This document shows, one piece after another, positions 1 to 20,253 of a DNA stretch of 45,175 nucleotides. Each line of letters starts with the position of its first letter. Position 1 is the first letter of the stretch. This DNA comes from Clostridia bacterium (lineage in GTDB: Bacteria; Bacillota; Clostridia; Christensenellales; UBA1242), in the NCBI GenBank assembly GCA_017537515.1, contig JAFYKO010000082.1:1-45175 (forward strand). The letters run 5' to 3'. A program made the position numbers and the translations under genes. The notes beneath the pieces were generated by a model that ran no database searches, was not told the origin of the DNA, and worked only from the letters and a program-made list of their open reading frames with translations.

Positions 1-1010
1 ACCATTGTGTTAAGTTGTTGAAGCTTTCCAACGCTGTGGATCATAAATGCGTTGTCAACACTTCCGTCTCCAGTGTTCGAGTTTTTGAGGTGAGGCAAGT
101 TTTTGTAAGCTTCACCACTGAATGACAAGAAGCCATAGTTTGTTGTTATGTCATAAGCAAATTTTTTGCTTGCTTTTGAGTTTGAAAGGAAGATATCTTT
201 TGGATTCTCTTCGCTGACTTCAATCATTGTTGACATTGTGTTTGTGTCAGATTCGATACCGTTGTCATCATAAGTTCCAGTTGTGTAAAGGTCATAATGA
301 CAATCTGTTGTTGAGTTATCTCCAAACACCCCAGAGCCCACTGAACCATTGTTTTGTGTTATTGCAGAGGTGTATGATGAATAGATTTTTCCGTTTGCAC
401 TTCCTTGTCCAAACGCATAAGAATCTAGGGCATTAACCGAACCAGTTGTGTAAGAGTTGTTGATAATTCCGTCATTAAGTCCCACAAATGCACCTGCAAT
501 TGCAGTTGTTTTGACATCAACATCTGTTGCTGAATCCAAGATTTGTCCACCATTTACGCCGACAAGTCCGCCGGTGTAAACATCAGAAAGGCTGTTTTGA
601 ATTCCAATAACTTGGAACTTCTCTGGGCCTTCGCTTTCGGTTGCGTTGCAAGAGTAGATTGTGCCAAGGTTAATGTTTGCGAGAGTTCCTGAACCAGTTG
701 CAACTGTGCCAGATTTACTGTAAACCGTTGTTGTGTGGGTGCTTAGGCTATTTGCAACAACTTTAACGCCCGCAACAACTGAATTTGCGTCGACACTTGC
801 AAAGAGTGCGTCGCTTGCAATTCTTGTTTCGAATCCGTCGCCAACAAAGTGTGCGTTTTTGAGACTGATATTTTTCATCACGTCTTGCGAAAGAGATTCA
901 GTCAAAACAAAGAATGTTTTTCTTCCGTTGTTATCGCTTTCAAACCATTTTTTGTTTTGGTTGAAGTTTGAATTTGTAAGTTGAATTGGGGCGAGTTTTG
1001 AGCCTTCATA
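1..1010 (-). repeat. GLUG-type beta-helix module 5 (truncated by window edge)
   Basis: Begins YEGSKLAPIQLTNSNF and contains YTGGLVGVNGGQILDS and IAGAFVGLNDGIINNSYTTG. Still open at nt 3. Confidence 0.45.
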
Positions 1011-4000
1011 AACTTCAACATTTTCTTCATAGTCATCGAGTTGTGTTTTGTAGTCTACGATTACACTTGCGAGTGTTGGAAGAGTTTCGTCCAAGCCGTT
1101 GTTTGTATAGAAATACACGTTTTCAGTTTGGAGGCCGTTGACAAGGTCTGTTTCGTTGTAGTCAAGGCAAAGTGTAAGTTGATTTGAGTAATAGTTCTTA
1201 GCGTCAGAGTCAGTAAGTGTGCCGTTGCTTGAACCTACAACTGCATTGATATTCATATTTTCAGTAATATCACTGCTTGCAGATGTGATTGTACAAACGC
1301 TGTAGTTTGTGTTGAGGTGTGTTGCACTTGAACCCTTGCCGAGGATTCCTCCAAAATAACTTGGTTTGTCGTTTTCCGTCATATTTGCAGATACGTGAAT
1401 ATCTCCATATGACAAGTTTTTGGTTAGGGTTTTTCTAAGTTCGTAAGAACCGCTTGTGTTTGAATTTCCTACAATTCCGCCAACGTACATCGCTTCGCCA
1501 CTCTTAACCAATACGCTTCCGCCAAACACAGTGCCAATTATTTCAACTGCGTTTACGTTTGAAACAGAGGTTCTTGAGCCTACAATTCCGCCAACAAGTC
1601 CGCCGACGTTTACGTTTGAGCCATCAATAGTGATTCGGCCAATATATTTTGCGTCATAATCCATATTCCCAAGAATAAGTGAACTTGAAGTTGTATTGAA
1701 CAAGCCAATCATACCACCGACATTTGCAAAGCCTGAAAGGTTTGTATTTGAGTTTGTGTAAGTTAATGAAGTTCTTGAAATTGCGTTTGTGATTTTAAGG
1801 TCGCCATTAACCACGCCGACGAAACCGCCAATATTTGTTTGCCCACTTGTTGCCTTAACGTTGATTGTTCCAAATGTTTCTATATTGTCAATTCCTTCAA
1901 TGCCTATGGCTGAACCAATAAGCATACCAGCATTGACTTTTTCGGCAGTCAAGGCCATATCCACATCGACAACAACAAACGCATCTGTTTTGACAGTTGC
2001 ACCGTTTGTGAGGCTTGTGCTTGTGTTGGATTTTCCAACAATACCGCCGATATTTGCTTCGCCTATGTTTGCATTTTCGCTTGCAGTTATTGCACCAACG
2101 ATATTAAGTCTTGAATCTGTTGAAACACGTTGGAAAGACACAGTCAAGTTGTTTGCTTCGCCGAAAAGCAAGCCCGCATTGTATCTTTCGATGTTGCCTC
2201 GGTTTTGGACGTTGATAACAAGACCGTTGTTTATGCCATTGTAAGAGCTGTCAGGGGTGTAGGTTTGTTTAGGGTTGGTTGTGTTTGCCACGCCCACGCC
2301 CTTAACTCTTTCACTTGTTGCAGAAATGGTTGTATAAGCAAGCATAACTGCCCCGTCCGCACTTCCGGCAATGCTTCCAACAGAAAGGTTTTTGATAGGG
2401 TGATTGTTTGCATTTATGACAATGTCATTGAGTGTTGAGTTTGGAGAGTTAACAAACCCGCTTGACATATAGGCTGTTACATCTCCGATTTGCATATTTG
2501 CACTGCTGACTGTTTCAATCTTGCCCGCAAGCATACCGACGCTTACATCTGTTTCTGAAAGGTCTTCGCTTGCGAGAGCGGTTACTGAACAGTTTACGAA
2601 TGTAATATTTGAAATATATCCGCCTGAAATTTTGTTTGCAAGAATTCCCACGTTATTGAAACCTTCGCTTAGGCTTGCAGTTATGTGGCAATTTGAGATT
2701 GTGAGATTTTCAAACGAAGATTGAGTTGCTGTGTTTGTTATACTTGAAGAAGTTGGAATTGCTTGGGTGTTTGAAGAGCCAAGGTTTTTGAAAGTCAAGT
2801 TGTAGATTTTTGCATTTTGTATGCTTTCAAAGAATGGCACTGCAAGGCCTTCAAAGCCAAAACCATAATTCATAGTATTGTCAAGACCTTTAAGCACGCC
2901 TGTGAATACAATGCTTGAAAAGTCAATACCGCTTGTAACGAGATAAGAGCCAATATTTATGATTGGTTTAACTGGGGATTCCGCCGCACGTACAATAAAT
3001 GTTGCTGAAGGGAATTGAATTATCTTTTGAAGGTCTTCCGCTTTGTCAATATAGAATAGGTTTGTATCACTAAACATAACAAGTTTTGGAAGAAGTTCGG
3101 TTGTGTATCTCACCCAATAATTTGGGTCCCAGTCTGATTGCAAGAAGTATTGGTCCATAGTAACACCATTATAAGAAGATGTGCTTAGTTCATAAAGCGG
3201 TGTTATTGATTGTTTCGCTTGAATCATATCATAGTATGAGCCAGTGTTGAGTTTTGCAAAAGATTTTTTGAGAGAAACCTCTTCGCCTTTTTTCTTGCCG
3301 TTGAATTTCACAGTCGTAACTGCAAACATATCATCACTACCAACCGCACAAGTTATGCTTGGAAGGTTGTAGCCACTGTATGAAGGATTGAGACTTACAA
3401 CTTCGCCGTTTACTCTTGCAACGTTGTCGATGTATTCTGGTGCGACATAAGATTGAAGAAGGCTGGAACCAGTGAGGGCAAACACGCTGTAAGTGTTTTG
3501 TGGGATTGTGAAGCTTCCATTGTCTTCAACAAGACCCCAGAAGTTGACTGCGTTGACTTTGTTGAAAGCAAGTTTTCTTCCAAAGTCAATATAGCCTGCA
3601 ATACCGCCCGCACCCGCTTTTTCAGCATCTGACGCCTTCACGTCGCCAAACGCATAAACTTCATTGAGGGAGATTTGATATTTGCTTGCATTCAAAAGTC
3701 CAGGGATTTGTCCAACCACGCCACCGGCATAGGTTGCGTATTTGGAAATTACATTGACTTTCGAATAAGCGTGAGTTATCTTACCAGTTGTCATAAGGCC
3801 GACAAGTCCACCAATTGCAAGAGGTTTGTTTTGACTTGTTGACTCAAACAATGTGAGGTTTCCCCTTTCAACTTCGGTTGAAGCTGGGTTTTGATAATAT
3901 AATGGAATATCGCTTTCAATTTGGTTTTGAAGTGCGAGTTCGTGCTGAGCCCTAAGCATATCAAGGTCGCCATAGTTTTCGCCGACAATACCACCCGCAT

Positions 4001-7000
4001 AGAATTTATCCGCAATTATTTTTTGCGTAAGGGTGTTTGAAAGTTCGAGAGTCGCATCCTTCATAAATGTACGAGGCCCCATATATCCTATCACGCCACC
4101 AGCGGTTGAGCCTGATATAACCATTGAACCTTCTGTTTTAAGGAATAAAAGGTGTGGGGTTTTCATTGCCTGGTCGTAGGTGTATGTATTTGAATAGCCA
4201 AGTCCATAAATATCTGCAACGCCGATGATTCCGCCTGCGTATGAAACATAAGCATTTAGGTTTATGATTTCGCTGTTGTTTCTCGAGAATCCTTGACTGC
4301 TTGAAGGAACCTTGTATTCTGCAGTAACTGAAATGTTGGTTGCGGTGATGTTTTTCACTTCACTGTCGCCTTGAACAATACCCGCAAGGGCACCGACAAT
4401 ATTACGCCCAGTTACATTTGAGTTTTGAGTTTGAGAACCCGCCATAAGTGAGATGTTTATGAGTTTTGAGTCGTAAACGCTTCCGGCAATAGCACCTACG
4501 TTTTGTGCTTTTCCGGCTGAAACAAGAATTACGTTTACATTCATATTCATAATAATAGCGTTTTGTTCAAGCTTTGCGAAAAGTCCATAGTTTAAAACTG
4601 ATGTGTCTGCACTTGCAGTAAGGTCAAGCCCGCTTATTGTAAACATATTTCCGTCCACAATACCGCCTTTAAGTGTCTTGTCTGTGGAACCAATCTTTCC
4701 ACTTTGTGTGCTTGGGATATCGTTGAAATTGATGTCGCTGATAAGCCTATAATTTCCATAAACTTCTGTTTGTGAGCGATATTTTTCAACTGCGGTGCTT
4801 TGCAGTGTTGTGAATCCTCCAAAGGCCATATTGTATTCGTCAGCGTTTTTGATGATTATTGGATTGATTTTGCTTCCGTATTCATAGCCTTCTGTGTATG
4901 GGAGGTTGTAAGATTCGATTTCGTTTGTAACCGCATTTCTTGTAACGTTTGCAAGGTATCTATTTGAAACTGCAATTTGATTTGCACTTACAAGGTCAAC
5001 GCCATAAGCAGTTGCATACCAAACACCATTCACAGAGTTTGTGTCATCAGAGAATGCAAAACCATAGAAATATTCGGTGTTGTCTGGTTCTTGAATACGC
5101 TTGATTGAAACGTTTTGGTCGAGGTCTGTATAAGAATCGCCTTCAAGAACAGATGATGCGTAATAATACGAGTTTTTGATTGTTCCTGTGTTTTGTTTTT
5201 GGTTGTTTTCGTCAACGCCGAGGAATGCTGTTTGAGTGTTCTTTGCGTTTTCAATTTTGCTTGCGGTGTAGCATCTCTCAATCTCGCCAGAGTTGATGTA
5301 TGCAAAACCTGCTGTAAACCTTCCACTCTCATAAGGCGAGGTTGTATTTCCAGTTCCGCTTGCAAGCATAATATTTGAATATGAATCGCCAATATCCCCG
5401 CTGTTTGTGTAAACAAATCCTGCACTTATGCTTGAGGTTGATATTCCGCCACCGCTGAGGCTGTATTCGGCATTGCCAACGCCCTTAACATAAGAGGTGT
5501 GTATTTGCCCAGAGTTTTGTCCAACAAATCCTGCTGTGCGTGTTTCGATTCCGCTTGCGGTGTTGTTTGTTATTTGTCCATTTGCAAAATATGAGCTTGC
5601 AATATTGCCACGATTTTCATAAACAAAACCTGCTATATTGCCCTGTCCAGCAATACTGAACACTGATAGAGGGATGTCGTTTGAATTTACTTTGTGAAGC
5701 ATATTCCCGCCAACACGAGAGTTGGAGATGTTTCCTTCATTGTAAACCACGAAGCCAGCGATTGTGCTTGTGATAAGGCTTGAAATATTTCCGCTTGAAT
5801 AAGAAGCGACAATGCCAGAAGTTCCAAGTTCTGGGGTTGTTTTGTCGGCATTGAACGCAACCACTTCGCAGTTGTAGATTATGCCATAGTTTGTGATTGC
5901 AAGGCCGGCGATGTTTACACTTCTTGTAACTGAAGTATTGACGCTGACAAGTCCCGCGTGATAAATATTGACAGTCAAGTTTTTGAGGATTGTATCCGCA
6001 TTGACAGTTTCAAACAATGCAAAGTTTTCAACTTGAGTTGCACTTGAATCATCGTAACTCATAATATTGATTGTGAAGTTATTTCCGTCAAGGCTTTTGA
6101 TTGCGTTGGTGGTTTGTGGGGTGTAGTCCTCAAGATAAAGGTCGGTCATAAGGATATAGTTTTCTGGTGTGTTGCCTTGAATTGCATCATAGAATCCCGC
6201 TTCGTTTTCGATAATAAGTGGCGTATCTTCGTCGCTGTATTTCACTACAGTTATTGTGAAGTTAAAGTTGATTTCGGTTGTGTAGTATCTTGACTCAGCG
6301 TTTGGATATTGCACTTGGAGTTTGAAAACAAGTTTCACTGGGTTTGTGGTTGTTGCTATACCCGTAATTGAAATTTTCCCCGTTGTTTCGTCAACGTTTA
6401 TTGTGAAGTATGAGTTTGAGTTTATTGTTCCATCATTTGACACGATAGATGATGTACTTCCATCGCCATTAACATAATACAAATTGCCAAGGAAACTTTT
6501 TGCCTTATAGTTGTTTGTATTTACAACATAATCCCCGAATGTGCCAAGGTCTGATTTCTTTTCGTAATAGAAGTTTTGAATAAATTGATTGAATGCATCA
6601 TTTCCGCCTTGGTTTTGATTGCCGTTGAAGTCGAATTGAAGATTTGTGTCAAGTCCGACATATGTTGTAAGGTTTGTTTTGTCGAGTTTGTCAGTGAGGA
6701 GGGTTATCTCATCAATCACAAAGTCGACAATTCCAAGAGCCATTGTTGTTGTTTTTGTTTGTTGCTTCCCATTTTCTTTCCACGAAATTACCGCTTCAAT
6801 TGTAACGTAGTTTGCGTTGTGTAAAATCTCCAAAGTTTCGCCAACATAAAGGTCGTAAGTTATGGTTTTAAGGATAGAAGAAGGAAGCTCCTCAATTGTT
6901 TGGTTTGCGTATGTGATATAGTTTCCTACACTGCTGATTGATGTGTCAACTCCCGTAAAGAAAAGGTTTTCAAGGGTTTGGTCTTTTTCAAGGGTTACAA

Positions 7001-10000
7001 CAAGTTTTTGTGTTGTACCTCGAGCCACGTTGTCAACCTCTCGTCCGTCTGGGTTGTAGACTGCAATATCCGCTCCTTCAAGATATTGAACAATAAGATT
7101 GAATGGAATTGTTTTGACTGCAACTTGGTTTTTGATTGCACTTATTTGGATATTGAAAACAACGTCTTGATTGGTTGTGAGAGGGACAAATGTGCTGATG
7201 TAGATTATATTTTGATTGTCAACATTGCTTTCATCAAGAGAGTAGGCGTTGTAGACTATTATTCCATCTTCAAAAATAGCATAATTGTTGTTGTTTCGAG
7301 TGAAGAGCCCGTTTGTTTCTTTCTTCATAAGCCCAAAGGTAAGGTTGCCATTTGCACCGTTTTGAGCCGAATAAGTTACGGTGATATAATCATAATCTGC
7401 GTAGTCTGGGAAGAGATTTATTTTCAAAAGCCCTTCTTCTCCAGGAGAAAGAACGCTTGTTGAAGTGCCTGAGTATGAGTGGTATACAATATTTTTCTTG
7501 CTTGTGCTGTCGTAAACTAGGTTTTTGTCAATAAGTGTATAATGACTTGCGTTTATGCTTGTTATCTCTTGTGAATTTATCACAACTGAGAAGTCTTCAA
7601 ACACAAGGTCTGTGCCGATAGTCTCAGCGTTTCCAAGAGAAGATTTTGCGTAGGCGAGGAGTTTGAGTTCTGTTCCCACATTTCCGTTTGAAGTTGTGTT
7701 TTGGTCGAAGTCATAGTTTTTATACTCACTTTTAACTTCAAGTGAGATTCTGTAATAATGTTTAAAGTAAACTGCTTCGTCTATATTTTGTGTCTTTTGG
7801 GTTAGGTCAATTTTGCTTGTGAAATATTCTGAAGAGATGTATTGGGTTTGTATATCAAAAATGTCTTCAAATTCTTGGCTGTCCACTATTATTGCAAGAC
7901 TTTCATTTGCTGGTGCTATGTCAGAAAGAATGAAGCCTTCAACAATAATTTCACCACTTGGTTGCATTGTAAATTCAGATTGATTTACGTCCACCACGTC
8001 TGCACCCTTATAGAAGTTAAGGAAGAACGAGCCAGAGAAATTGTTTCCGAGAATCTCGTTGATTGCAGTCTTTTCTGCACTGCTTAAAGAATCTGAAACA
8101 ACTGAAAGTGCGTATTCCACCTCAAACAAATCAAGTCCAAAATCTTCATAAAGTTTGATTGTGTTTATTGTTGCGGTGAGGTTTTTGCCACTAATGTAAG
8201 AATCAAGGTCTTCTTGGAATGAAAGTTGATATTTGTTTTCATCAATAAGCACATAATTTTGGTCGAGAATTATTGAATTTTGAAGTAATGCCGTAAGTGA
8301 GAAGTTGTTGTTTGTCTTTATTTTTAAGTTTGAGTTATCCCCAAATTCAACACCATTTTGCATTAGTTTGAAATCGAGAATTGGGTTTATGGTGTAGATT
8401 TCAAAAGTTTGAGATATTGTGCTGTCGTATTTTGAGAAAAGAGTAAGTGTTGCACTGCCTTTGCCGGTTATTTGCACGCCATTTGCAAAGACTGCAATAA
8501 CTTTTGAGTCAGAGCTTATACCCCTAAGACCTACAAGGCTTTCGGTTGTCCCGAGAAGTTCTTCAAAAGTTATGAAGTTTAGGTCTGAAAGAGCATAGAT
8601 TTCTTGCAATGTCAACGAACCACTGGTTGAATAGTGGAAAATCACGCTTTTTCCTTGGATGCTGAAAATATTGTCAGCGTTTGCAAGGGTATTTGAAATG
8701 CTTTCAAGTGGTATTTCTAAGACAATACCTTTGAAATAAGGAAGTCCAAAGTTTTGCTCTGAATCCAACGCCCAAACTTCTGCATAATTTAGGTTGCGGA
8801 TTTCTGTGTATTCATTATTTTGTATATAAGTTCCGCTTGCGTTTTGGTTGTCAGTTCTGAAAACCAAATAAGCATTTTTGATGTATGAAAGGTTGGTTGC
8901 ATTGCCAGTAAAGGAGGTCAAATCATTTGCATATCCAAAGGTTTTATCAATGTTTCCGCCTGTGAGATTTCCAACAAGAACACCGACATTTTGCCCGCTG
9001 ATAACTTCAAGCCCGATATAGTTTTTAGGGTCTGCATTTTCTGACGCATAAGATTGGAAGTAAGAGTTTTTGAGTGTTCCCGCAGTCATTTCGCCGACAA
9101 GACCACCAACAAAAGATGTTCCGCTTATTTTTGCGTAAGTGGTTGTATTTGAAGAGTTGTAGTTGTAAACTTCAACTTTTGAGCCAAAAATATCGCCAGT
9201 ATTCAAGCCAACAAGACCACCAACAACTGCGTTTGAGGTTGACTCGACACCACCAAAGAAGGCAGAGTCTGTTATTTTTCCATAATTTTCAGCAACCAAG
9301 CCACCGACATATCCCACATCTTCGGACGCTTTAAGGATTGTATAATTTCCAGCAGAATTGAAGCTTTCAACAGTTACATTTTCAATGCTTCCCTTATTTT
9401 TGTTTGCAAGAACACTGTTTCCTGCAATTTCTCCAGCAGTGTTTGTGATAATGAGGTCTGCAACCTTGCCCGAAAGGGTGATTTCGCTAAACAAAGTTTT
9501 TGAAGTTTGGATTGTTGCAATTTCATTGCTTCCGATAAGAGCCCCATAAAGCCCACCACTAAGTGCACCATTAAACACAAAGTCGCCTGGATTGATTGCG
9601 GTTACGTCTTGCATAAGCACATAATGTTTGTCAAGTTCAGTGATTTGAGAGAGGTTGTTGACTCTGTAAGCGGTCGCTCGAGAATTTCCGTCAGCGATTG
9701 TGATTGGGATATAAACCGCCACATCGTTTTCGCCAGCAACGTATCCAGTTGGGGTGTATCTATCTGCAGGGGCAATTCGAATAATCCCCGCACCACCGTT
9801 TATTCGACTTCCGTCAACGGTTATGTAGCCCGCTTCTCTGTTTACGGTTATTGCATCGCTTTCTGTGTATGCATCAGGCAAGAACTCGAAGACAAGTTCG
9901 CTGTTGAATGGTTCGATATTGCTTTTGCCTATCTGAACTTCCGCTGTTATTGGACGAGTTAGGTCTTTGCCTGAGTTGTCGAGTTGAAGGTATATACCTT

Positions 10001-12593
10001 GTTGAAGATTGACATCCAAAACTGCGATTTTTTCAACTTGTTGAGCTTTTTTGATTTCAACTTTTAGGGTAAGGGTGTAGGTCTTTCCAAACTCTTGGAC
10101 TTTTGCAACAAAGAAGAATGTCCGAGATGCCACACTGTGATACTTGGTCTCCCCACCTTCTTCGTAAGCCTCGGTTGTACTGTGGGCCTTGATTGCCACT
10201 TCGCCGTCCTCAAACACAAAGTTGTAAACATTTTTTCCGCCAAGGGTGAAATCGAAGCCATAATTTGAAGTCCATTCAATGTTTGAGTATGTTGCATCTT
10301 CATTGATGTAGACAAATGCTCTGCCTTCGGAATAATCCATATCATTTACGCCAAGTGTTTCGGCAGAATAGAGAGTAAGCGAAGTTTTTGAAAGTGCAAA
10401 GCCGTCAACTGGGATATACACTTCAACAAAGAAATATGTTTTGAAACTTACTGATTGTTTGCTTTCGCCATTCAATTCGTATCCGAAAATAGTGGCTTCT
10501 ATGCAAGTTTTTCCGCAGTCAAGGCCATAAATCTCGCTCATACCTGAAAGATAACTTGCTTGGACAATATCAGACTCTGACCCGAATGTAAGGTTTTGCA
10601 TATTATTGAAGATTGCAAGGTGCATAAAGTTTTGGTATTCACTTGCATATGCGTTTTCATAATCTGACAATAAGGTGTCTGAATATCCATATGAGATAGA
10701 TGTTGCACCGGTGATATTTTTGGTAAGGGTGATTGACGTGCCTTGCTTAATGGCCACGCTGAATTGCAAGTTGACTGTATTTGAGAAGTTTGAAATCACT
10801 TGCATATTTCCAACAGCGGTGCTTCCTTGTGGGGTTGGAACTGAAAGTTTTATATCTTTTAGTGTCAATTCTTCAAACACTTCAACCCTGAGGCTTGCAG
10901 AGAATCCATTTGCACTTCTTATCACAAGAATTCCATCAGCACTGACTTTGCCTTTAACTGAAGATATTTGGAAGGTATAATTGTTTGCTTGTATACGAGT
11001 AATACTCTTCGAATCGGCTGTAAACGCATCCCCGCTTGTCATAATCTCAACGCTGTTGCCTTCGTCATTGTCGATAAAGAAGCTAACGCTTTGCGTCATA
11101 ACTTCGTTTGATGTGAGATAGACAACCTTATTTCCGTCTTGGTCGATTTGTGTGCCGTTGATTTCGAGGTTGAGTGTACCTTGAGTTGCGTCAAGGAAGA
11201 GTGTTTTTGAGATTGCTGGGTTGACTTTTGCAAAAATCTTGATAGCACCATTTGATGCTGACGTAGAGTTTGCCTTAACAAAAATTGCTTCACCGCCTAC
11301 AAACTCATATTGGTCGTCTGTGAAGATAATTTCTTCAGCAAACCCGAATGCGTTTTTCTTATAGAATGTATATTCACTTGAACCGGTTTGGAGTTCCAAA
11401 ATAAGAACTCTTTGGTCTTCTGGAATTGCAGAAGGGGTTACTTCAGTATCGATTTGGAGACCTATTTTTGAACCATAATACTCGTGATAAACCACTGCAG
11501 TATTGGATGCTGGAACGAGGCCGTCAGTTAAAAGTTGAATTGATTTAATTGCGTCATGGGTTTCAATCTTGAAAGATTGAGATGTGTAGGTGTAGCCATA
11601 AACATCATAAGACATAACGAAATAAACCTCGTCATTGCCTGAAAGTTGTGTTGAAGTGAGAGTAAAGACAAAACGTGTTTTGTCATTGTTTTGAGATTTT
11701 GTGCTTGAAACAAATTCTACTATTTCACTTTCGGTTTTGAGTGTGCTTTTCACATAAGGAATGATTGATACAGACTCGCTGGTGCTGAGTTCTATTATAA
11801 AATCAACTGACTTTGTGTCTGCAATATTTTTGGTGAGAGAAATAGTTCTTGTAAGGTCGATTTCGCCTGCTGTTTGAGAATAATTTGCACTATACTCAAC
11901 CACAGAAGAAATTGGTTCGAGGACGTCAAGAGTTATAAAAGTCGAGATATTTGGCTTGTCCACGCTTGTTGCTTTGAGGGTTATTTGATTGAAAGCATAA
12001 TCATCGGTGATTGTGAGGACGCCATTAGAAAGGTTTACTCCGCTTGCGAGTTCATCAAGAAGCGAGAATTCGACAACTTGTTGTGTTGTGTTTGCCGGGC
12101 TGTATTGAATAAGTTTGTATGAATTCAAGGCTTTTGGTTCGCCACGAACGACATAGAGATTTTTAGAGTCGGTTGTTGAATACATAGCGGAAACTGGCAC
12201 TTCAACATTGACATAGAAAGACACAGTCTTGTTGCCTTCAAGGGTTGTTACGGTGATAACCGCATTTTGACAAACGCCATTTGCTGTAAGCGTTATTGCA
12301 GTTGCGTTTCCGTCCTCAAAGGCGGTTTCAACGGTTATGTAGGCGTTATTTGAAGAGACGCTAATATCTTTGCTGATTCCCTTATCACCTTTTACATAAG
12401 CGTAAATTGTCTCTGTTGTTGAGACGCCATTTTCGAGATATAAAACAACCGTCGCACCGTCATTTGACAATGAGACAGAAATGTTTTTGTTTGAATCGCA
12501 CGCCGTAAAGCCAAATGCGAGCAAAACAAAAATCAACACAAACGAAAGTTTGCTTAAAATCGACTTAAAACTAATGTGTGAAAATAAACTCAT
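1..12593 (-). CDS. Giant cell-surface lipoprotein, N-terminally complete, C-terminus beyond the left window edge (at least 4197 codons); Ig-like domain arrays interleaved with five GLUG-type beta-helix modules
   Basis: ATG at 12591-12593 (minus) lies 7 nt after a GAGAGG Shine-Dalgarno core. Hand translation in this frame (top base of each codon = 2 mod 3) gives no stop down to nt 3, base-by-base verified at about 11790-12593, 9603-9701, 6003-6059 and 3-68. It is missing from the ORF track only because it has no stop inside the window. Every minus-strand ORF the track lists in 1-12593 is in another frame (end coordinate = 1 mod 3). Protein starts MSLFSHISFKSILSKLSFVLIFVLLAFGFTAC. Confidence 0.85.
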   Translation of the reverse strand, partial: MSLFSHISFKSILSKLSFVLIFVLLAFGFTACDSNKNISVSLSNDGATVVLYLENGVSTTETIYAYVKGDKGISKDISVSSNNAYITVETAFEDGNATAITLTANGVCQNAVITVTTLEGNKTVSFYVNVEVPVSAMYSTTDSKNLYVVRGEPKALNSYKLIQYSPANTTQQVVEFSLLDELASGVNLSNGVLTITDDYAFNQITLKATSVDKPNISTFITLDVLEPISSVVEYSANYSQTAGEIDLTRTISLTKNIADTKSVDFIIELSTSESVSIIPYVKSTLKTESEIVEFVSSTKSQNNDKTRFVFTLTSTQLSGNDEVYFVMSYDVYGYTYTSQSFKIETHDAIKSIQLLTDGLVPASNTAVVYHEYYGSKIGLQIDTEVTPSAIPEDQRVLILELQTGSSEYTFYKKNAFGFAEEIIFTDDQYEFVGGEAIFVKANSTSASNGAIKIFAKVNPAISKTLFLDATQGTLNLEINGTQIDQDGNKVVYLTSNEVMTQSVSFFIDNDEGNSVEIMTSGDAFTADSKSITRIQANNYTFQISSVKGKVSADGILVIRSANGFSASLRVEVFEELTLKDIKLSVPTPQGSTAVGNMQVISNFSNTVNLQFSVAIKQGTSITLTKNITGATSISYGYSDTLLSDYENAYASEYQNFMHLAIFNNMQNLTFGSESDIVQASYLSGMSEIYGLDCGKTCIEATIFGYELNGESKQSVSFKTYFFVEVYIPVDGFALSKTSLTLYSAETLGVNDMDYSEGRAFVYINEDATYSNIEWTSNYGFDFTLGGKNVYNFVFEDGEVAIKAHSTTEAYEEGGETKYHSVASRTFFFVAKVQEFGKTYTLTLKVEIKKAQQVEKIAVLDVNLQQGIYLQLDNSGKDLTRPITAEVQIGKSNIEPFNSELVFEFLPDAYTESDAITVNREAGYITVDGSRINGGAGIIRIAPADRYTPTGYVAGENDVAVYIPITIADGNSRATAYRVNNLSQITELDKHYVLMQDVTAINPGDFVFNGALSGGLYGALIGSNEIATIQTSKTLFSEITLSGKVADLIITNTAGEIAGNSVLANKNKGSIENVTVESFNSAGNYTILKASEDVGYVGGLVAENYGKITDSAFFGGVESTSNAVVGGLVGLNTGDIFGSKVEVYNYNSSNTTTYAKISGTSFVGGLVGEMTAGTLKNSYFQSYASENADPKNYIGLEVISGQNVGVLVGNLTGGNIDKTFGYANDLTSFTGNATNLSYIKNAYLVFRTDNQNASGTYIQNNEYTEIRNLNYAEVWALDSEQNFGLPYFKGIVLEIPLESISNTLANADNIFSIQGKSVIFHYSTSGSLTLQEIYALSDLNFITFEELLGTTESLVGLRGISSDSKVIAVFANGVQITGKGSATLTLFSKYDSTISQTFEIYTINPILDFKLMQNGVEFGDNSNLKIKTNNNFSLTALLQNSIILDQNYVLIDENKYQLSFQEDLDSYISGKNLTATINTIKLYEDFGLDLFEVEYALSVVSDSLSSAEKTAINEILGNNFSGSFFLNFYKGADVVDVNQSEFTMQPSGEIIVEGFILSDIAPANESLAIIVDSQEFEDIFDIQTQYISSEYFTSKIDLTQKTQNIDEAVYFKHYYRISLEVKSEYKNYDFDQNTTSNGNVGTELKLLAYAKSSLGNAETIGTDLVFEDFSVVINSQEITSINASHYTLIDKNLVYDSTSKKNIVYHSYSGTSTSVLSPGEEGLLKINLFPDYADYDYITVTYSAQNGANGNLTFGLMKKETNGLFTRNNNNYAIFEDGIIVYNAYSLDESNVDNQNIIYISTFVPLTTNQDVVFNIQISAIKNQVAVKTIPFNLIVQYLEGADIAVYNPDGREVDNVARGTTQKLVVTLEKDQTLENLFFTGVDTSISSVGNYITYANQTIEELPSSILKTITYDLYVGETLEILHNANYVTIEAVISWKENGKQQTKTTTMALGIVDFVIDEITLLTDKLDKTNLTTYVGLDTNLQFDFNGNQNQGGNDAFNQFIQNFYYEKKSDLGTFGDYVVNTNNYKAKSFLGNLYYVNGDGSTSSIVSNDGTINSNSYFTINVDETTGKISITGIATTTNPVKLVFKLQVQYPNAESRYYTTEINFNFTITVVKYSDEDTPLIIENEAGFYDAIQGNTPENYILMTDLYLEDYTPQTTNAIKSLDGNNFTINIMSYDDSSATQVENFALFETVNADTILKNLTVNIYHAGLVSVNTSVTRSVNIAGLAITNYGIIYNCEVVAFNADKTTPELGTSGIVASYSSGNISSLITSTIAGFVVYNEGNISNSRVGGNMLHKVNSNDIPLSVFSIAGQGNIAGFVYENRGNIASSYFANGQITNNTASGIETRTAGFVGQNSGQIHTSYVKGVGNAEYSLSGGGISTSSISAGFVYTNSGDIGDSYSNIMLASGTGNTTSPYESGRFTAGFAYINSGEIERCYTASKIENAKNTQTAFLGVDENNQKQNTGTIKNSYYYASSVLEGDSYTDLDQNVSIKRIQEPDNTEYFYGFAFSDDTNSVNGVWYATAYGVDLVSANQIAVSNRYLANVTRNAVTNEIESYNLPYTEGYEYGSKINPIIIKNADEYNMAFGGFTTLQSTAVEKYRSQTEVYGNYRLISDINFNDIPSTQSGKIGSTDKTLKGGIVDGNMFTISGLDLTASADTSVLNYGLFAKLEQNAIIMNMNVNVILVSAGKAQNVGAIAGSVYDSKLINISLMAGSQTQNSNVTGRNIVGALAGIVQGDSEVKNITATNISVTAEYKVPSSSQGFSRNNSEIINLNAYVSYAGGIIGVADIYGLGYSNTYTYDQAMKTPHLLFLKTEGSMVISGSTAGGVIGYMGPRTFMKDATLELSNTLTQKIIADKFYAGGIVGENYGDLDMLRAQHELALQNQIESDIPLYYQNPASTEVERGNLTLFESTSQNKPLAIGGLVGLMTTGKITHAYSKVNVISKYATYAGGVVGQIPGLLNASKYQISLNEVYAFGDVKASDAEKAGAGGIAGYIDFGRKLAFNKVNAVNFWGLVEDNGSFTIPQNTYSVFALTGSSLLQSYVAPEYIDNVARVNGEVVSLNPSYSGYNLPSITCAVGSDDMFAVTTVKFNGKKKGEEVSLKKSFAKLNTGSYYDMIQAKQSITPLYELSTSSYNGVTMDQYFLQSDWDPNYWVRYTTELLPKLVMFSDTNLFYIDKAEDLQKIIQFPSATFIVRAAESPVKPIINIGSYLVTSGIDFSSIVFTGVLKGLDNTMNYGFGFEGLAVPFFESIQNAKIYNLTFKNLGSSNTQAIPTSSSITNTATQSSFENLTISNCHITASLSEGFNNVGILANKISGGYISNITFVNCSVTALASEDLSETDVSVGMLAGKIETVSSANMQIGDVTAYMSSGFVNSPNSTLNDIVINANNHPIKNLSVGSIAGSADGAVMLAYTTISATSERVKGVGVANTTNPKQTYTPDSSYNGINNGLVINVQNRGNIERYNAGLLFGEANNLTVSFQRVSTDSRLNIVGAITASENANIGEANIGGIVGKSNTSTSLTNGATVKTDAFVVVDVDMALTAEKVNAGMLIGSAIGIEGIDNIETFGTINVKATSGQTNIGGFVGVVNGDLKITNAISRTSLTYTNSNTNLSGFANVGGMIGLFNTTSSSLILGNMDYDAKYIGRITIDGSNVNVGGLVGGIVGSRTSVSNVNAVEIIGTVFGGSVLVKSGEAMYVGGIVGNSNTSGSYELRKTLTKNLSYGDIHVSANMTENDKPSYFGGILGKGSSATHLNTNYSVCTITSASSDITENMNINAVVGSSNGTLTDSDAKNYYSNQLTLCLDYNETDLVNGLQTENVYFYTNNGLDETLPTLASVIVDYKTQLDDYEENVEVYEGSKLAPIQLTNSNFNQNKKWFESDNNGRKTFFVLTESLSQDVMKNISLKNAHFVGDGFETRIASDALFASVDANSVVAGVKVVANSLSTHTTTVYSKSGTVATGSGTLANINLGTIYSCNATESEGPEKFQVIGIQNSLSDVYTGGLVGVNGGQILDSATDVDVKTTAIAGAFVGLNDGIINNSYTTGSVNALDSYAFGQGSANGKIYSSYTSAITQNNGSVGSGVFGDNSTTDCHYDLYTTGTYDDNGIESDTNTMSTMIEVSEENPKDIFLSNSKASKKFAYDITTNYGFLSFSGEAYKNLPHLKNSNTGDGSVDNAFMIHSVGKLQQLNTM
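1060..3065 (-). repeat. GLUG-type beta-helix module 4
   Basis: Head: NLFYIDKAEDLQKIIQFPSATFIV...AVPFFESIQNAKIYNLTF. Turns: NVGILANKISGGYI, SVGMLAGKIE, SVGSIAGSADG, NIGGIVGKSNTS, NIGGFVGVVNGD, NVGGMIGLFN, NVGGLVGGIVGS, YVGGIVGNSNTSG, YFGGILGKGS. Confidence 0.5.
3085..4868 (-). repeat. GLUG-type beta-helix module 3
   Basis: Head: NPIIIKNADEYNMAF...YGNYRLISDINFNDI...GGIVDGNMFTISGLDL. Turns: NVGAIAGSVYDS, IVGALAGIVQGD, YAGGIIGVADIYG, TAGGVIGYMG, YAGGIVGENYGD, AIGGLVGLMTTGKI, YAGGVVGQIPG, GAGGIAGYIDFG. Cap: SDWDPNYWVRYTTELLPKL. Confidence 0.55.
4985..6235 (-). repeat. GLUG-type beta-helix module 2
   Basis: Head: DTPLIIENEAGFYDAIQGNTPENYILMTDLYL...LDGNNFTINI. Turns: NIAGLAITNYGIIYN, TIAGFVVYNEGNISNS, NIAGFVYENRGNIASS, RTAGFVGQNSGQI, ISAGFVYTNSGDIGDS, FTAGFAYINSGEIERC. 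Cap: NGVWYATAYGVDL. Confidence 0.55.
6236..8730 (-). repeat. Second array of Ig-like beta-sandwich domains in the giant protein
   Basis: Segments such as ISSDSKVIAVFANGVQITGKGSATLTLFS resemble Big_2 domains. No G-L-x-G turns here. Boundaries approximate. Confidence 0.4.
8731..9680 (-). repeat. GLUG-type beta-helix module 1 of the giant protein
   Basis: Head: RVNNLSQITELDKHYVLMQDV. Repeated G-L-x-G turns: ALSGGLYGALIG, VGYVGGLVAENYGKI, AVVGGLVGLNTGDI, SFVGGLVGEMTAG, NVGVLVGNLTGG. Cap: NYAEVWALDSEQNFGLPYF. Confidence 0.55.
9681..12497 (-). repeat. Array of beta-sandwich (bacterial Ig-like, Big_2-type) domains, N-terminal third of the giant protein
   Basis: About 90-100 aa periodic segments rich in T/S/V/N with motifs such as ITLTANGVCQNAVITVTT and ITLKATSVDKPNISTFITLDV, typical of Ig-like group 2 domains. 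Boundaries approximate. Confidence 0.4.
12498..12593 (-). other. Lipoprotein signal peptide of the giant ORF (lipobox F-T-A-C, Cys32)
   Basis: Basic N-region (K10, K15), hydrophobic core FVLIFVLLAFGF, then TAC with Cys codon tgc at 12498-12500 (minus). Confidence 0.6.
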
Positions 12594-12631
12594 TTTTCTT
12601 CCTCTCTGCGAAATTTTCAATTTCTACTAGA

Positions 12632-12661
12632 ATTATAGCATTTTTCGACATTAAAAGTCAA
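12632..12661 (-). promoter_or_regulatory. Sigma-A-type promoter of the giant gene (TTGACT - 18 nt - TGcTATAAT)
   Basis: Minus strand reads TTGACT (12656-12661), an 18-nt spacer ending TGc, then TATAAT (12632-12637). This leaves an approx 30-nt leader containing GAGAGGAAG before ATG 12593. Confidence 0.5.
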
Positions 12662-12933
12662 TTAAAAATACTATGTATTTTATATAAATAACAAAAAATT
12701 TCACAAATTTTTTGGCATTGAAGAAAAATTTCAAAATCTCTCTAAGAAAAACCGCAAAACTTTTCTTGTTTTATTATCCCCAAAATTCTTTCAAAAATAA
12801 CCAAAAATTTATTTTTTAAACAAAAATTTGAATAAAAAAATAAAAAACACATAAAAAATTGGATTTTTTGCATTTTTTGAGTATTTTTTATTAAATTATT
12901 TAAATTTCTGCTTTTGCAAGGTGAAGGTGGTTT

Positions 12934-13674
12934 CTAATTCTGGTCGTCGGTTTTTAAGACCTTGTCAAAAAGGTTGTACCTCTCTGTATGGCATAAACTT
13001 GCGTGTAAGCTTCTTTTGAAACCTGGATTTTTTTCGGCAAGGTCAGATAAGACGAGTTTCACTTTTTCCCTTTCGGTTGTTTTGTTTGCGGGACAACAAC
13101 TGTCCACAATCGGCAAACCTTCACACTGAGCAAGGATGTCATTCTCCCAAATATACAAGAATGGACGAATCACCCACAAAGACGCCCTCGAGAGGTATGT
13201 TTTTGGCCAAAAGGTGCTAAGGCGGTTTTCTCTTGAAACGCACATAAAGAATGTTTCTATAAAATCATCGGCGTGATGCCCAAGGGCAACCTTATTGCAA
13301 CCAAGCTCTTTTGCCTTGGAATTAAGCACGCCTCGGCGAAGATTTGCACACAAAGCACAAGGGTTTTTCTCTTTCCTCACATCAAACACAATCTCTTTTA
13401 TGGCAGTTTGGACAACAACAAACTCAACGCCTAGTTCTTCGCAAAACTTTTCAATTTTTGAGTAGTCTGTATTTCCAAAAACATCAACAGCAATAGCGAC
13501 AATTTCAAAATCAAACTTGACTTGCTTTCTATACTGCGACAGACACAAAAGAAGCGTAAGGCTGTCTTTTCCACCAGACACCCCAACCGCAACCTTATCT
13601 CCTTCTTCAAGCATAGAATATTCTTTGATTGCCCTATGCATTGCAGACACCATTTTTTTGTTTGCTTTTTTCAT
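12934..13674 (-). CDS. ttcA: PP-loop ATPase, TtcA-family tRNA 2-thiocytidine synthetase-like
   Basis: Carries SGGKDS PP-loop, CALCANLRRG (matches the TtcA C-x-x-C-x-x-L-R-R-G motif), GHHADD, and a second Cys pair DSCCP. The start is placed at ATG 13672-13674 because a consensus promoter lies inside the longer track ORF (to 13716). Confidence 0.75.
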   Translation of the reverse strand: MKKANKKMVSAMHRAIKEYSMLEEGDKVAVGVSGGKDSLTLLLCLSQYRKQVKFDFEIVAIAVDVFGNTDYSKIEKFCEELGVEFVVVQTAIKEIVFDVRKEKNPCALCANLRRGVLNSKAKELGCNKVALGHHADDFIETFFMCVSRENRLSTFWPKTYLSRASLWVIRPFLYIWENDILAQCEGLPIVDSCCPANKTTEREKVKLVLSDLAEKNPGFKRSLHASLCHTERYNLFDKVLKTDDQN

Positions 13675-13681
13675 AAGAATA

Positions 13682-13710
13682 ATTATATCAAACTCTACGA
13701 CATTTTGCAA
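13682..13710 (-). promoter_or_regulatory. Consensus promoter abutting the ttcA-like start (TTGCAA - 17 - TGaTATAAT - 7 nt - ATG); leaderless-type
   Basis: Minus strand: TTGCAA (13705-13710), 17-nt spacer ending TGa, TATAAT (13682-13687), tattctt, ATG (13674). No Shine-Dalgarno. Confidence 0.5.
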
Positions 13711-13851
13711 GCCCATTTTTCAAACGCAAACACACTCTAAGATGATAAAATTAATATTTTAACAAAAAATTAAATAAAAAATAATAAAAAATGATTTTTT
13801 TATTAAAATTTAATATTTTTTTATAAGTTTTTTAATTTTTTGTTTATATAA

Positions 13852-14100
13852 TTATTTATCTTTCCATTTGTTTTTTGTAGCCTCGCCACCTCGAAGGTGC
13901 TTTTCCTTAAAATTCTTTTGAAGAATTCTGTCCACTTTTTCAAAGAGTCTTGGGTCAATCAGTGGAAGCTTTTTTGACACGTCGTTGTGAACGGTGCTTT
14001 TACTTATCCCATAAACCACAGCGGTTTGCCTAACTGTTTTGCCGGTCTTTAAAATATATCTCCCAAGCGAGATTGCTCGTTGTCTTTTTACAAAATCCAT
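13852..14100 (-). CDS. spoIIID: Stage III sporulation protein D (SpoIIID), mother-cell HTH transcription factor
   Basis: 82 aa. GISKSTVHNDVSKKLPLIDPRLFEKV and HLRGGEATKNKWK match the conserved SpoIIID HTH and basic C-terminal motifs. SD is GAGAGG. Confidence 0.9.
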   Translation of the reverse strand: MDFVKRQRAISLGRYILKTGKTVRQTAVVYGISKSTVHNDVSKKLPLIDPRLFEKVDRILQKNFKEKHLRGGEATKNKWKDK

Positions 14101-14245
14101 ATAATACCTCTCAATATTTTTGACATAGGCAAAGGGCTTGCCTAGATGCCATATCTAGGGTATTTATATGAAGAAGAAAATAAAAAAAGAACAACTTTGA
14201 GCCGAATTTGTCAAAATTGTTCGATTTTTAAAGTTTTTTGAATTT

Positions 14246-14476
14246 TTACGCTTTTTTACCGTCAATCATATCAGCAATTTCTCTGATGGTTGTCAACTTT
14301 GAAGTTTCTTCATCTGTGATAACAACACCAAATTCATCTTCCAATGTCATAAGCATTTCAACAACGTCAAGTGAATCAGCACCAAGGTCCTCAATCAATT
14401 TTGCGTCGTCCGCAATGCTTTCAACTGGTTTGTTAAGTTGAACGGAAACAAGTTTTTTTACTTTATCAATTGTCAT
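14246..14476 (-). CDS. acpP: Acyl carrier protein
   Basis: DLGADSLDVVEMLMTLEDEFG carries the phosphopantetheine-Ser motif. The start is set at ATG 14474-14476, preceded by GGAGG. The track ORF extends to 14542 through the RBS. Confidence 0.85.
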   Translation of the reverse strand: MTIDKVKKLVSVQLNKPVESIADDAKLIEDLGADSLDVVEMLMTLEDEFGVVITDEETSKLTTIREIADMIDGKKA

Positions 14477-14586
14477 AAGATCCTCCACTTCTGGCCTTTG
14501 AAAAGCCATTGATTTAAAAAACAGCCTATTGAAATTCAACAAACTGATTTTTAACTACGAAACACATTTCATAGTTAATATAGGAT

Positions 14587-16050: not shown

Positions 16051-16155
16051 AAACTTTTTTTTATTTTAAATAATTAATTAAAAATAGCTCAAAAATCTTA
16101 TTTTTTATTAAAATATAATTATTTTTATTAATCTTTTTTAAATATTTTTTGTTTT

Positions 16156-20247: not shown

Positions 20248-20253
20248 TCCCCC

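Follow-up and report, generated by a model that had tools for sequence, protein, structure and literature searches.

A colinear family of giant lipobox-bearing proteins with Ig-like and GLUG beta-helix modules in uncultured gut Clostridia

Results

The first 12.6 kb of the window (the whole 45,175-nt stretch of Clostridia DNA analysed here) carries a single minus-strand reading frame, hereafter gene 1. Translation from the ATG at 12593-12591 to nt 3 gives 4197 codons with zero stops (no TAA, TAG or TGA in frame), as the original prediction, which was made from the sequence alone, had claimed. The remaining five frames of the same 12.6 kb contain 176-282 stops each, with a longest open run of 173 aa; at a per-codon stop probability of 0.063, calculated from the local base composition, the chance of an open frame of this length is ~1e-119. 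An in-frame stop lies three codons 5' of the ATG. The start is preceded by a putative Shine-Dalgarno sequence, GAGAGG (12606-12601, minus strand; 7 nt 5' of the ATG, read from the sequence), and by a candidate σ70-type promoter at 12661-12632 (minus strand), identified by consensus match alone: TTGACT, 18 nt and TG-n-TATAAT, that is, 11 of 12 matches with an extended −10 element.

The ORF list for positions 1-12593 holds no entry longer than 161 aa, and this apparent gap arises because the lister, by its own description, leaves out any ORF that continues past the end of the source; gene 1 has no stop inside the window. All ten of the listed minus-strand ORFs end at 1 mod 3, whereas the frame of gene 1 is 2 mod 3, so they are off-frame, as had been proposed. 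A complete allele from another assembly of the same species (P0054) encodes 5522 aa and is identical to the window product at 4163 of 4198 residues (99%) without a gap. The window therefore lacks the final 1325 codons: its partial coding sequence (3-12593, minus strand; codons 1-4197 of 5522) exits at the left end and makes up the first 76%, counted from the 5' end, of a chromosomal gene with 5,522 codons, which turns the earlier estimate of at least 4197 codons into an exact length. The description of the gene as uncalled is correct for the ORF track only, as a partial 4198-aa product of the same contig is present in NCBI nr; the expectation that such genes would be fragmented in assemblies was borne out, with many relatives being partial and lying at contig ends.

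Several lines of evidence establish gene 1 as real and native and show that purifying selection acts on it. Its codon usage follows that of 24 neighbouring genes (RSCU r = 0.935), and its GC3 lies within 1 SD of theirs. Within the species, 13 of 16 SNPs in gene 1 are synonymous and 3 are non-synonymous, 13 of the 16 fall at codon position 3, and SNP density is 0.7-1.6 per kb, compared with 5.8-7.8 in the flanks. Three independent same-species assemblies agree at 99.6-100% over the parts that they cover. BLAST found no internal repeats in the protein, the DNA of gene 1 has no repeats of ≥25 nt except two weak pairs, and no tandem repeats were found in the full-length allele; on these results we reject an artefact of repeat collapse. 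A chimeric or collapsed assembly, the possibility that the original prediction had itself raised, is thus unlikely, given the lack of long repeats and the agreement of three independent assemblies. A scan of JGI metagenomes for a same-species contig extending the window, and an Rfam scan of the window, returned no match.

The N-terminus of the gene 1 product, MSLFSHISFKSILSKLSFVLIFVLLAFGFTAC followed by DS, fits a PROSITE-style lipobox pattern, with a signal peptide at aa 1-31 and the lipobox FGFTA-C ending at Cys32 (12498-12593, minus strand; Cys32 codon 12498-12500). We scored as a lipoprotein signal any signal peptide that ends in a lipobox ([LVI..][ASTVI..][GAS]-C) and has the Cys about 15-35 residues into the protein. 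The pattern {DERK}(6)-[LIVMFWSTAG](2)-[LIVMFYSTAGCQ]-[AGS]-C matches FVLLAFGFTAC here and is also found in eight of eight relatives; the Cys32 column is invariant in the eight-sequence full-length alignment, in agreement with the predicted lipoprotein signal peptide, and a lipobox is also present in the distant giants L016-L018, L022 and L024 and in gene 2 (see below). The rule of a positive n-region (Lys or Arg in the first ~7 residues) holds for all eight relatives but fails in the window protein, whose first Lys is residue 10; this is a minor deviation, as K10 and K15 lie ahead of the hydrophobic core.

The N-terminal signal is the sole strongly hydrophobic segment of the gene 1 product and the sole one common to all members of the family. 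The 5522-aa allele has no C-terminal hydrophobic segment, and no member has a C-terminal transmembrane segment; in one subclade, two members carry a single additional hydrophobic segment near residue 4900-4960, which in P0010 lies near residue 4943, ~650 aa before the C-terminus, and comes without an LPXTG motif. No LPXTG sorting signal occurs in the complete allele or in seven complete relatives, which leads us to reject sortase anchoring and supports the proposal of an N-terminal lipid anchor in place of a C-terminal sortase signal.

After Cys32 comes a putative membrane-proximal stalk of roughly nine to ten Ig-like beta-sandwich domains (aa 33-985; 9639-12497, minus strand), which places the predicted Ig-like arrays in the N-terminal ~950 aa. 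An AlphaFold2 model built from a 20-sequence alignment is all-beta, with a mean pLDDT of 87.9 and a pTM of 0.45; Foldseek against the PDB retrieves tandem Ig-like arrays, among them the S-layer proteins Sap and SbsB, the Ig-like domains of PrgB, and invasin (E 1e-7 to 1e-25). The same segment has no Pfam match and no PDB sequence match.

The Ig-like array is followed by a first predicted GLUG beta-helix module (aa 986-1290; 8724-9638, minus strand). When the whole 4197-aa protein was scanned at once against Pfam and NCBIfam, no families were returned, so that whole-protein hmmscan missed the sole Pfam signal of gene 1, GLUG (PF07581); scanned as 500-aa slices, the product exceeds the GLUG gathering score of 20.5 bits at aa 1001-1500 (E 1.5e-6, 28.7 bits) and again at aa 2501-3000, the two passing slices of the window part scoring 28.7 and 21.8 bits. 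GGLVG motifs lie at aa 1125 and 1163, and this first module is weakly similar to the later ones. Next comes a conserved middle region of ~820 aa (aa 1291-2110; 6264-8723, minus strand), with 25-40% identity in the family, no Pfam match, no PDB profile match and no profile-profile similarity to the N-terminal Ig-like array; it could conceal an activity.

The best-conserved part, the family core, comprises two GLUG-type right-handed beta-helices (aa 2111-3020; 3534-6263, minus strand), with 45-57% identity across the eight full-length members and 25-36% with distant members. Its AlphaFold2 model (aa 2100-3020; pLDDT 86.5, pTM 0.89) is made of short periodic strands, and the top Foldseek match is 3N6Z (E 4e-5), followed by the IgA1 proteases 6XJA, 6XJB and 7UVK (probability 1.00). 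Gly and Asn make up most of the invariant columns, as is usual in the ladders of structural solenoids. The predicted G-L-x-G beta-helix modules are accordingly GLUG beta-helices at the GG[LIV][VI]G regions, with the sliced Pfam scans, AlphaFold and Foldseek in agreement. A match to Peptidase_M26_N in the segment after the core (aa 3021-4197) remained below threshold (E 4.5e-5, 23.2 bits against a 27.7-bit cutoff); together with the IgA1-protease fold match of the core (probability 1.00, TM 0.14-0.19), it marks a likeness that goes no further than the GLUG solenoid.

The remainder of the window product (aa 3021-4197; 3-3533, minus strand) consists of a less conserved linker and then, as judged from motifs and hhalign, more GLUG beta-helix modules, with onsets near aa 3170 and 3870. 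GG[LIVM][VI]G motifs occur at aa 3516-3748 and 4008, hhalign aligns this C-terminal window region with the core (probability 93.7%, E 2e-7), and an orthologue fragment (P0001) is 72% identical here; the window stops at the onset of the next GLUG module. In the full allele, the part beyond the window adds about 18 more GLUG repeats of ~35 residues (Pfam GLUG at 35.9 and 23.3 bits) and then an aromatic-rich tip of ~320 aa (aa 5201-5522). The tip is the least conserved part of the protein and is detectable in two relatives only; such rapid change is expected of a ligand-facing end.

An exhaustive HMMER search with aa 33-990 gave 22 matches among 1.84 billion cluster representatives. Seven of them are full-length (4719-5763 aa), and each aligns as a single colinear HSP over aa 1-4195 at 30-44% identity. 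A GTDB genome scan with the family alignment did return relatives, and gene 1 is syntenic in roughly 20 species-level MAGs of gut Clostridia, with fixed neighbours: an M23 peptidase, SpoIIID, a PP-loop gene, an LPG-synthase-like gene and mfd. The hosts are uncultured gut Clostridia of animals and humans, Christensenella-like or Ca. Caccopulliclostridium where named. Gene 1 thus represents a rare family of colinear 4,700-5,800-aa proteins confined to uncultured gut Clostridia. It had originally been called an accessory feature, a label that does not hold for a gene found at the same chromosomal position in many species-level MAGs and colinear throughout. Downstream of gene 1, at a distance of 510 nt, lies gene 2, a paralogous lipoprotein gene of 3220 aa; at 16.6 kb for gene 1 and 9.7 kb for gene 2, the two genes occupy about 26 kb.

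Other searches found little. Given the N-terminal 1000 aa, a word-seeded homologue search returned no match; given the C-terminal 1000 aa, it returned one 968-aa fragment only. The single sequence gave no match in a GTDB genome scan, and neither the whole protein nor four regional alignments gave one when the PDB was searched by sequence and by profile. The family has neither a Pfam family of its own nor a PDB relative by sequence, its members are called "hypothetical protein" where they are named at all, and the literature that we searched holds no description of these giant proteins.

Discussion

The architecture of the gene 1 product, from which the original prediction had proposed an adhesin or S-layer-like surface protein, suggests that it is probably a lipid-anchored fibrillar adhesin. 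The precursor would be exported by Sec, Lgt would attach diacylglycerol to Cys32, and Lsp would cut before Cys32; neither lgt nor lspA lies in the window. After this processing, the lipidated N-terminus would hold the protein on the outside of the cytoplasmic membrane. The cell would be a spore-former and, as we assume from the Clostridia assignment and the sporulation gene context, monoderm. The Ig-like array may then serve as a stalk that carries the remainder through and beyond the wall, and the serial beta-helices with their fast-evolving distal tip may make up a rigid fibril with an extended length of very roughly 100 nm, whose surfaces would bind glycans, other cells or material from the host. 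We predict no catalytic activity for the protein. The literature supports this reading: membrane-bound proteins with GLUG motifs in gut methanogens have been proposed as adhesins (PMC9723798), GLUG repeats have been described as solenoids akin to 3N6Z (PMC4021314), and bacterial proteins of >5000 aa, NRPS and PKS aside, are mostly attachment or surface proteins (PMC11573180).

The GLUG solenoid proteins Bacteroides BACOVA_03286 (PDB 3N6Z) and the streptococcal M26 N-domain (6XJA, 6XJB, 7UVK) share with the gene 1 product the repeat motif and the right-handed beta-helix, and they are surface proteins of host-associated bacteria, as the gene 1 product is predicted to be. The gene 1 product differs from them in lacking the M26 catalytic domain and HEXXH, in having a lipobox instead of LPXTG, and in being 4-15 times longer, with at least 5-6 serial helices; its identity to the PDB entries is 12-15%. 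Apilactobacillus kunkeei offers a parallel at the level of gene organization: in this small-genome, host-associated member of the Bacillota, the consecutive genes Giant1-5 encode extracellular proteins of 3,000-8,000 aa, with beta-solenoid domains, an elongated predicted shape, a fixed chromosomal position and a proposed role in adhesion (PMC12863079). Those proteins run from an N-terminal SRRP-like beta-solenoid through an alpha-helical, alanine-rich rod to a C-terminal SH3b-like wall-binding domain (PMC12863079). The loci are alike in their consecutive giant genes, beta-solenoids and fixed position, whereas the modelled regions of gene 1 are all-beta, its lipobox and Ig-like stalk are N-terminal and its helices are of the GLUG type; the sliced scans gave no SH3b Pfam match, and the homology searches gave no homologue of the A. 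kunkeei family.

Tandem Ig-like stalks that project a functional region are also found in PrgB, MSCRAMM-type adhesins and the Ig arrays of invasin and intimin, and PrgB and invasin are among the fold matches of gene 1. A sortase substrate is attached by its C-terminus, which leaves the N-terminus on display. Compared with the sortase-anchored adhesins, the polarity of the gene 1 product would be reversed, with the stalk next to the N-terminal lipid anchor and the functional region C-terminal.

Classical adhesin genes are frequently strain-variable; the lineage-wide synteny, strict colinearity and low within-species polymorphism of gene 1 are unusual for such an adhesin and fit a structural role in the envelope at least as well. 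It is therefore worth considering that gene 1 and gene 2 together form a constitutive, lipid-tethered fibrillar coat, S-layer-like and part of the basic cell architecture of the lineage, a reading that we regard as unlikely but rank second. The gene pair is conserved across the lineage and keeps the same place in the chromosome, with genes of the cell envelope and of sporulation alongside, gene 1 is colinear over more than 4000 aa and little polymorphic within the species, its promoter is near consensus, and the bacterial fold matches of its Ig-like array include the S-layer proteins Sap of B. anthracis and SbsB of G. stearothermophilus (Foldseek E about 1e-15), which likewise build chains of Ig-like beta-sandwiches on the surface of Bacillota. 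Those matches, however, are generic to tandem Ig-like domains, with NUP210, cadherins and titin scoring similarly; the gene 1 product is 5-7 times larger than Sap and SbsB and has no SLH domain, and known S-layer proteins as a whole are 5-10 times smaller. Pfam slices covering all of gene 1 and the first 3163 aa of gene 2 contained no SLH, CWB2 or other domain for S-layer anchoring or lattice formation; SLH was seen only in weak, GLUG-level matches such as P0040. The fast-evolving distal tip also fits ligand recognition better than lattice contacts.

A more specific proposal, to which we give about the same limited credence, concerns the tandem pair of ~5,500 and ~3,200 aa, both built on the plan of Ig-like stalk and GLUG helices: the two proteins, both lipoproteins, might constitute a lineage-defining envelope system of uncultured Christensenella-like gut Clostridia that has escaped notice so far, a two-component layer of fibrils tethered by membrane lipid that replaces the sortase- or SLH-anchored surface usual in Bacillota. 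If so, each colinear module would have a fixed structural or binding role, unlike those of a strain-variable adhesin.

We consider it improbable that the protein is instead a series of beta-helix enzymes tethered to the surface and active on carbohydrates, resembling polysaccharide lyases or glycoside hydrolases, with catalytic residues in the core that act on dietary or host glycans. The core is the most conserved part of the family and contains invariant acidic and basic residues (e.g., D2123, D2151, D2403, R2425, E2586, D2846, E2850, H2884 and E2893), and the Foldseek list continues below the IgA1-type helices with GH55, GH87, PL6, fucoidan lyase, RbmB and phage tailspike depolymerases. These fold matches, however, are weak (E 4.5e-3 to 0.3, TM 0.1-0.27), at a level that any right-handed beta-helix should give; the top-ranked 3N6Z and N-terminal domain of IgA1 protease are non-catalytic helices; the invariant columns are mostly the Gly and Asn of solenoid ladders; and neither the whole-protein nor the sliced scans found a CAZy-type Pfam family.

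A polymorphic-toxin or CDI giant, whose variable C-terminal tip would be a toxin for neighbouring cells, is very improbable. The poorly conserved ~320-aa tip and the long beta-helical filament, roughly of the shape of a CdiA or FhaB stalk, would suit such a protein, but we reject this identity because the downstream gene is a giant paralogue of 3220 aa and not a small immunity gene. In addition, the Pfam scans, which included the C-terminal 1325 aa, showed no toxin, Rhs, LXG or pre-toxin domain, the neighbourhood has no genes for two-partner or type VII secretion, and the protein is 99% identical within the species, with 35 differing residues among 4197 compared and none after residue 4166.

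Even less credible is an M26 IgA1-protease-like surface metalloprotease, to which the sub-threshold Peptidase_M26_N matches and the probability-1.00 fold matches to the IgA1 proteases of S. pneumoniae and G. haemolysans might point. The matches are limited to the beta-helical N-terminal domain of those enzymes; Pfam did not find Peptidase_M26_C, an LPXTG motif is lacking, and HEXXH occurs in neither the window product nor the 5522-aa allele and is missing from six of seven relatives, its single occurrence not being conserved. With both HEXXH and the catalytic domain absent, this identity is effectively refuted. Least likely of all, to the point of being negligible, is a non-functional gene 1 (a chance frame, a pseudogene, or a chimeric or collapsed assembly): its position at a contig edge and the fragmentary state of many public copies might raise that suspicion, but the ~1e-119 chance, three to four concordant independent assemblies, colinear orthologues in ~20 species, a SNP pattern of purifying selection and the absence of long repeats all speak against it.

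Giant surface proteins are a known kind, and the lipobox, Ig-like domains and GLUG beta-helices are known parts; the novelty is the family itself. Genes of this type are systematically under-annotated, because their domains emerge only in sliced scans, word-seeded searches miss giants, ORF listers drop contig ends and most assemblies break inside them. For the adhesin that we favour, an N-terminal lipid anchor on a fibril of >5,000 aa in a monoderm would be of opposite polarity to the textbook sortase-anchored adhesin. The genomes that carry the gene pair are probably small, and with ~26 kb kept at one locus across about 20 species, the pair would likely dominate the cell surface of the lineage.

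Results

On four lines of evidence, the giant gene (window 3–12593, minus strand) is a real, native gene. Read from 12593 to 3, its frame holds 4197 codons without a stop, compared with 176–282 stops in each other frame of the same stretch; at the local base composition, the chance of an open frame this long is ~1e-119, and the single reading frame of at least 4197 codons put forward in the original prediction is confirmed. The ORF track does list nothing longer than 161 aa across 1–12593, and its ten minus-strand ORFs are off-frame as proposed, all ending at 1 mod 3 vs. 2 mod 3 for the giant frame; because the ORF lister drops ORFs running off the source sequence, the region looked empty. The gene can be called “uncalled” in that track only, as NCBI nr already holds the window's partial product (P0002, 4198 aa). 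The expected initiation signals are found as well: a promoter at 12661–12632 (TTGACT, 18-nt spacer and TG-extended TATAAT; 11/12 consensus matches) and GAGAGG at the Shine-Dalgarno position 7 nt 5′ of the ATG, with an in-frame stop 3 codons 5′ of the same ATG. The 340-nt spacer 5′ of the gene (12594–12933) is very AT-rich, and the 600 nt that include it (12400–13000) contain 9 promoter-like sites vs. 3.2 ± 1.8 expected from shuffles.

Codon usage matches that of the 24 other window genes (RSCU r = 0.935; GC3 0.365 vs. 0.387 ± 0.028). Against two other same-species assemblies (L001 and L002, 99.6% identical), the window shows 16 SNPs inside the gene, 13 of them synonymous and 13 at codon position 3. 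Within the species, SNP density is 0.7–1.6 per kb in the giant gene (5347–12593) and several-fold higher, 5.8–7.8, in the adjoining housekeeping genes and spacers (12594–23715), the reverse of the usual pattern for surface proteins.

The true stop lies beyond the window's left edge. P0054 (5522 aa; Logan and ENA assemblies) shares a cluster of at least 90% identity with P0002 and aligns gap-free to the window product, with 4163 of 4198 residues identical; it is the complete same-species allele, the last 1325 codons of which are absent from the window. Repeat collapse is not a concern, since we found no internal protein repeats in the window product by BLAST, no long DNA repeats in the window part of the gene and no tandem repeats in the complete allele, where repetition is limited to ~30-nt stretches, 61–84% identical, coding for the GGxVG motif.

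Word-seeded homologue searches were nearly fruitless and returned nothing longer than 1738 aa, so that the giants were visible only to exhaustive HMMER and cluster look-up. Searching aa 33–990 against 1.84 billion cluster representatives matched only 22 proteins, seven of them complete (4719–5763 aa). All seven are essentially colinear with the window product from residue 1 to ~4195 (in one HSP each, except P0010, which takes two consecutive ones), at 44% identity for P0003, ~39% for P0005, P0007 and P0008, and 30–32% for P0010, P0011 and P0013, and extend 483–1505 aa past the aligned part. Every family member with a name is a “hypothetical protein”. A family-alignment scan of GTDB species representatives gave ~20 loci, all in MAGs from uncultured Clostridia of the gut, whose sources include goat colon, yak omasum, chicken, rabbit and human samples; from NCBI names where given (“Christensenella sp. 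UBA5489/UBA6345”, “Ca. Caccopulliclostridium gallistercoris”), not from phylogeny, we infer that they belong to Christensenellales.

The giant gene codes for a precursor of the secretory type that combines a conserved lipobox with an Ig-like array and serial GLUG beta-helices and has no other anchor; none of the assignable regions showed a recognizable catalytic domain. Residues 1–32 (MSLFSHISFKSILSKLSFVLIFVLLAFGFTAC) conform to the PROSITE-type lipobox rule, as in all relatives, with a first Lys at residue 10 as the sole deviation in the giant protein; Cys32 is invariant across the family alignment, in support of the predicted lipoprotein signal peptide. LPXTG is absent throughout the 5522-aa allele and the complete relatives, which also lack a further hydrophobic segment apart from a subclade-specific stretch; these sequence features favor, as anticipated, an N-terminal lipid over a C-terminal sortase signal. 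The stretch, strongly hydrophobic and transmembrane-like, lies ~650 aa before the C-terminus in P0010 (~aa 4943–4961) and the ORF of the related locus L014 (~aa 4908–4940); it marks one subclade and is absent from the window's clade.

The AlphaFold2 model of aa 33–985 (20-row alignment; mean pLDDT 87.9, pTM 0.45) is all-beta with ~95-residue units. Foldseek matches it to proteins with Ig-like domains in tandem: NUP210, ciliary central-apparatus chains, cadherins and, from bacteria, the S-layer proteins Sap and SbsB, PrgB Ig-like domains and invasin. A first GLUG module follows at aa 986–1290 (Pfam 28.7 bits vs. a 20.5 cutoff), and then a conserved segment, aa 1291–2110, that matched nothing in Pfam or PDB and showed no similarity to the Ig-like array in profile comparison. 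The core (aa 2111–3020), common even to the most distant members and 45–57% identical among close ones, is modeled with short periodic strands (pLDDT 86.5, pTM 0.89); 3N6Z is its best Foldseek match (E 4e-5), with IgA1 proteases 6XJA, 6XJB and 7UVK at probability 1.00, and generic right-handed beta-helix enzymes and tailspikes weaker (E ≥4.5e-3). Further GLUG modules homologous to the core (hhalign probability 93.7%) occupy aa 3021–4197, and ~18 more GG[LIV][VA]G repeats at ~35-residue spacing (Pfam GLUG E 7e-9) occupy aa 4298–5200 of P0054, which ends in a repeat-free tip of ~320 aa that is rich in aromatic residues; across the family, conservation is lowest in this tip. The models and profiles thus agree with the predicted Ig-like arrays and beta-helix modules; the Glug motif, as suspected, scores above the Pfam gathering score, in 500-aa slices only, hmmscan of the whole 4197-aa protein giving no family.

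Outside the giant gene, the window carries ordinary core-chromosome genes of a probably spore-forming member of the Clostridia (SpoIIE, SpoIIID, WhiA, MurB, Mfd, Pth, GapA, iPGM, RmuC and CCA-adding enzyme). Scans of the window detected neither tRNA genes nor Rfam families. Judged by gene order, the giant gene is lineage-core and syntenic rather than the accessory feature originally described, since the same upstream neighbors recur in the ~20 loci: mfd, a 570–580-aa ORF, an LPG-synthase-like gene, a YwmB/SpoIIT-like 152-aa ORF, an M23 peptidase, ACP, SpoIIID and a PP-loop gene. The adjoining PP-loop ATPase gene (TilS/TtcA-like; 12934–13716, minus strand) has the orientation of the giant gene in the window, L001 and the same-species contig L034, and is inverted in the relatives' loci L006, L007, L011–L015 and L033.

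A second lipoprotein giant, gene 2, lies 3′ of the giant gene, after ~0.3–0.5 kb, in every relative whose sequence continues: L033 (27155–36869, 3281 aa) and the downstream parts of L006, L007, L011, L012, L014, L015 and L024. L034 reads ACP, SpoIIID, PP-loop ATPase, giant gene (5522 aa), a 510-nt spacer and gene 2 (19244–28733, 3220 aa), which places gene 2 beyond the window's left edge. Gene 2 has a lipobox of its own, is Ig-like at the N-terminus and carries a core of the GLUG type; with 25% identity between the two cores over ~900 aa (E 3e-32) and 30% between the N-terminal domains, it is, on sequence comparison, a distant paralogue of the giant gene. The very AT-rich L034 spacer contains a GC-rich, near-perfect hairpin (18922–18991; RNAfold -48 kcal/mol) with no Rfam match and no copy in the window or other loci.

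Discussion

What is new here is a rare family of giant lipoproteins, unannotated and restricted to one lineage, that occurs as a tandem pair. Giant surface proteins of beta-helices and Ig-like domains are unsurprising in themselves, but the finding is firmly supported and gives a way into the surface biology of a gut lineage not yet cultured. GLUG solenoids (3N6Z, the IgA1-protease N-terminal domain) and Ig-like stalks are the closest known parts. The closest system in concept, the A. kunkeei Giant1-5 cluster, shares no homology with the giant protein and differs in anchor and domain plan (N-terminal solenoid, alpha-helical rod, SH3b; PMC12863079). The anchoring polarity of the giant protein is the reverse of that of sortase-anchored adhesins.

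By analogy with similar architectures, the giant protein is probably a lipid-tethered adhesive fibril: the lipidated N-terminal Cys, processed by the Sec/Lgt/Lsp pathway, would anchor it in the outer leaflet of the cytoplasmic membrane, with the Ig-like array as a stalk crossing the wall and the helices and tip as a long, rigid fibril binding something extracellular. Its length may be on the order of 100 nm, a rough estimate assuming ~4 nm per Ig-like domain and ~0.48 nm per ~30-residue helix coil. An adhesin role has been proposed for GLUG-motif proteins of gut methanogens (PMC9723798), and bacterial proteins >5000 aa, NRPS/PKS aside, are mostly attachment or surface proteins (PMC11573180).

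The main rival, that the gene pair builds a constitutive structural coat, is favored by the synteny across the lineage, the strict colinearity and the low polymorphism, and we consider it rather unlikely. An array of glycan-active enzymes is more improbable still: its enzyme-like fold matches are weak; it retains a slim chance because 820 residues have no assigned fold and the core carries invariant acidic residues. M26 protease, CDI/toxin and artefact readings were rejected on tested features; for the M26 protease, no conserved HEXXH occurs in the allele or complete relatives.

Sporulation-related genes flank the locus, namely SpoIIID, the M23 peptidase (14806–15396) and the YwmB/SpoIIT-like ORF (15592–16050), all within 13717–16050, and SpoIIE (38450–40747); they make the organism a probable endospore former, though related MAGs bear Christensenella-type names. 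Four ORFs of 357–581 aa (18293–20038, 24711–25784, 25809–27116 and 29388–30635) have no match in Pfam; among them, the 581-aa ORF is conserved in relatives, where it is syntenic with the giant locus (40–43% identity in L007, L008 and L009).
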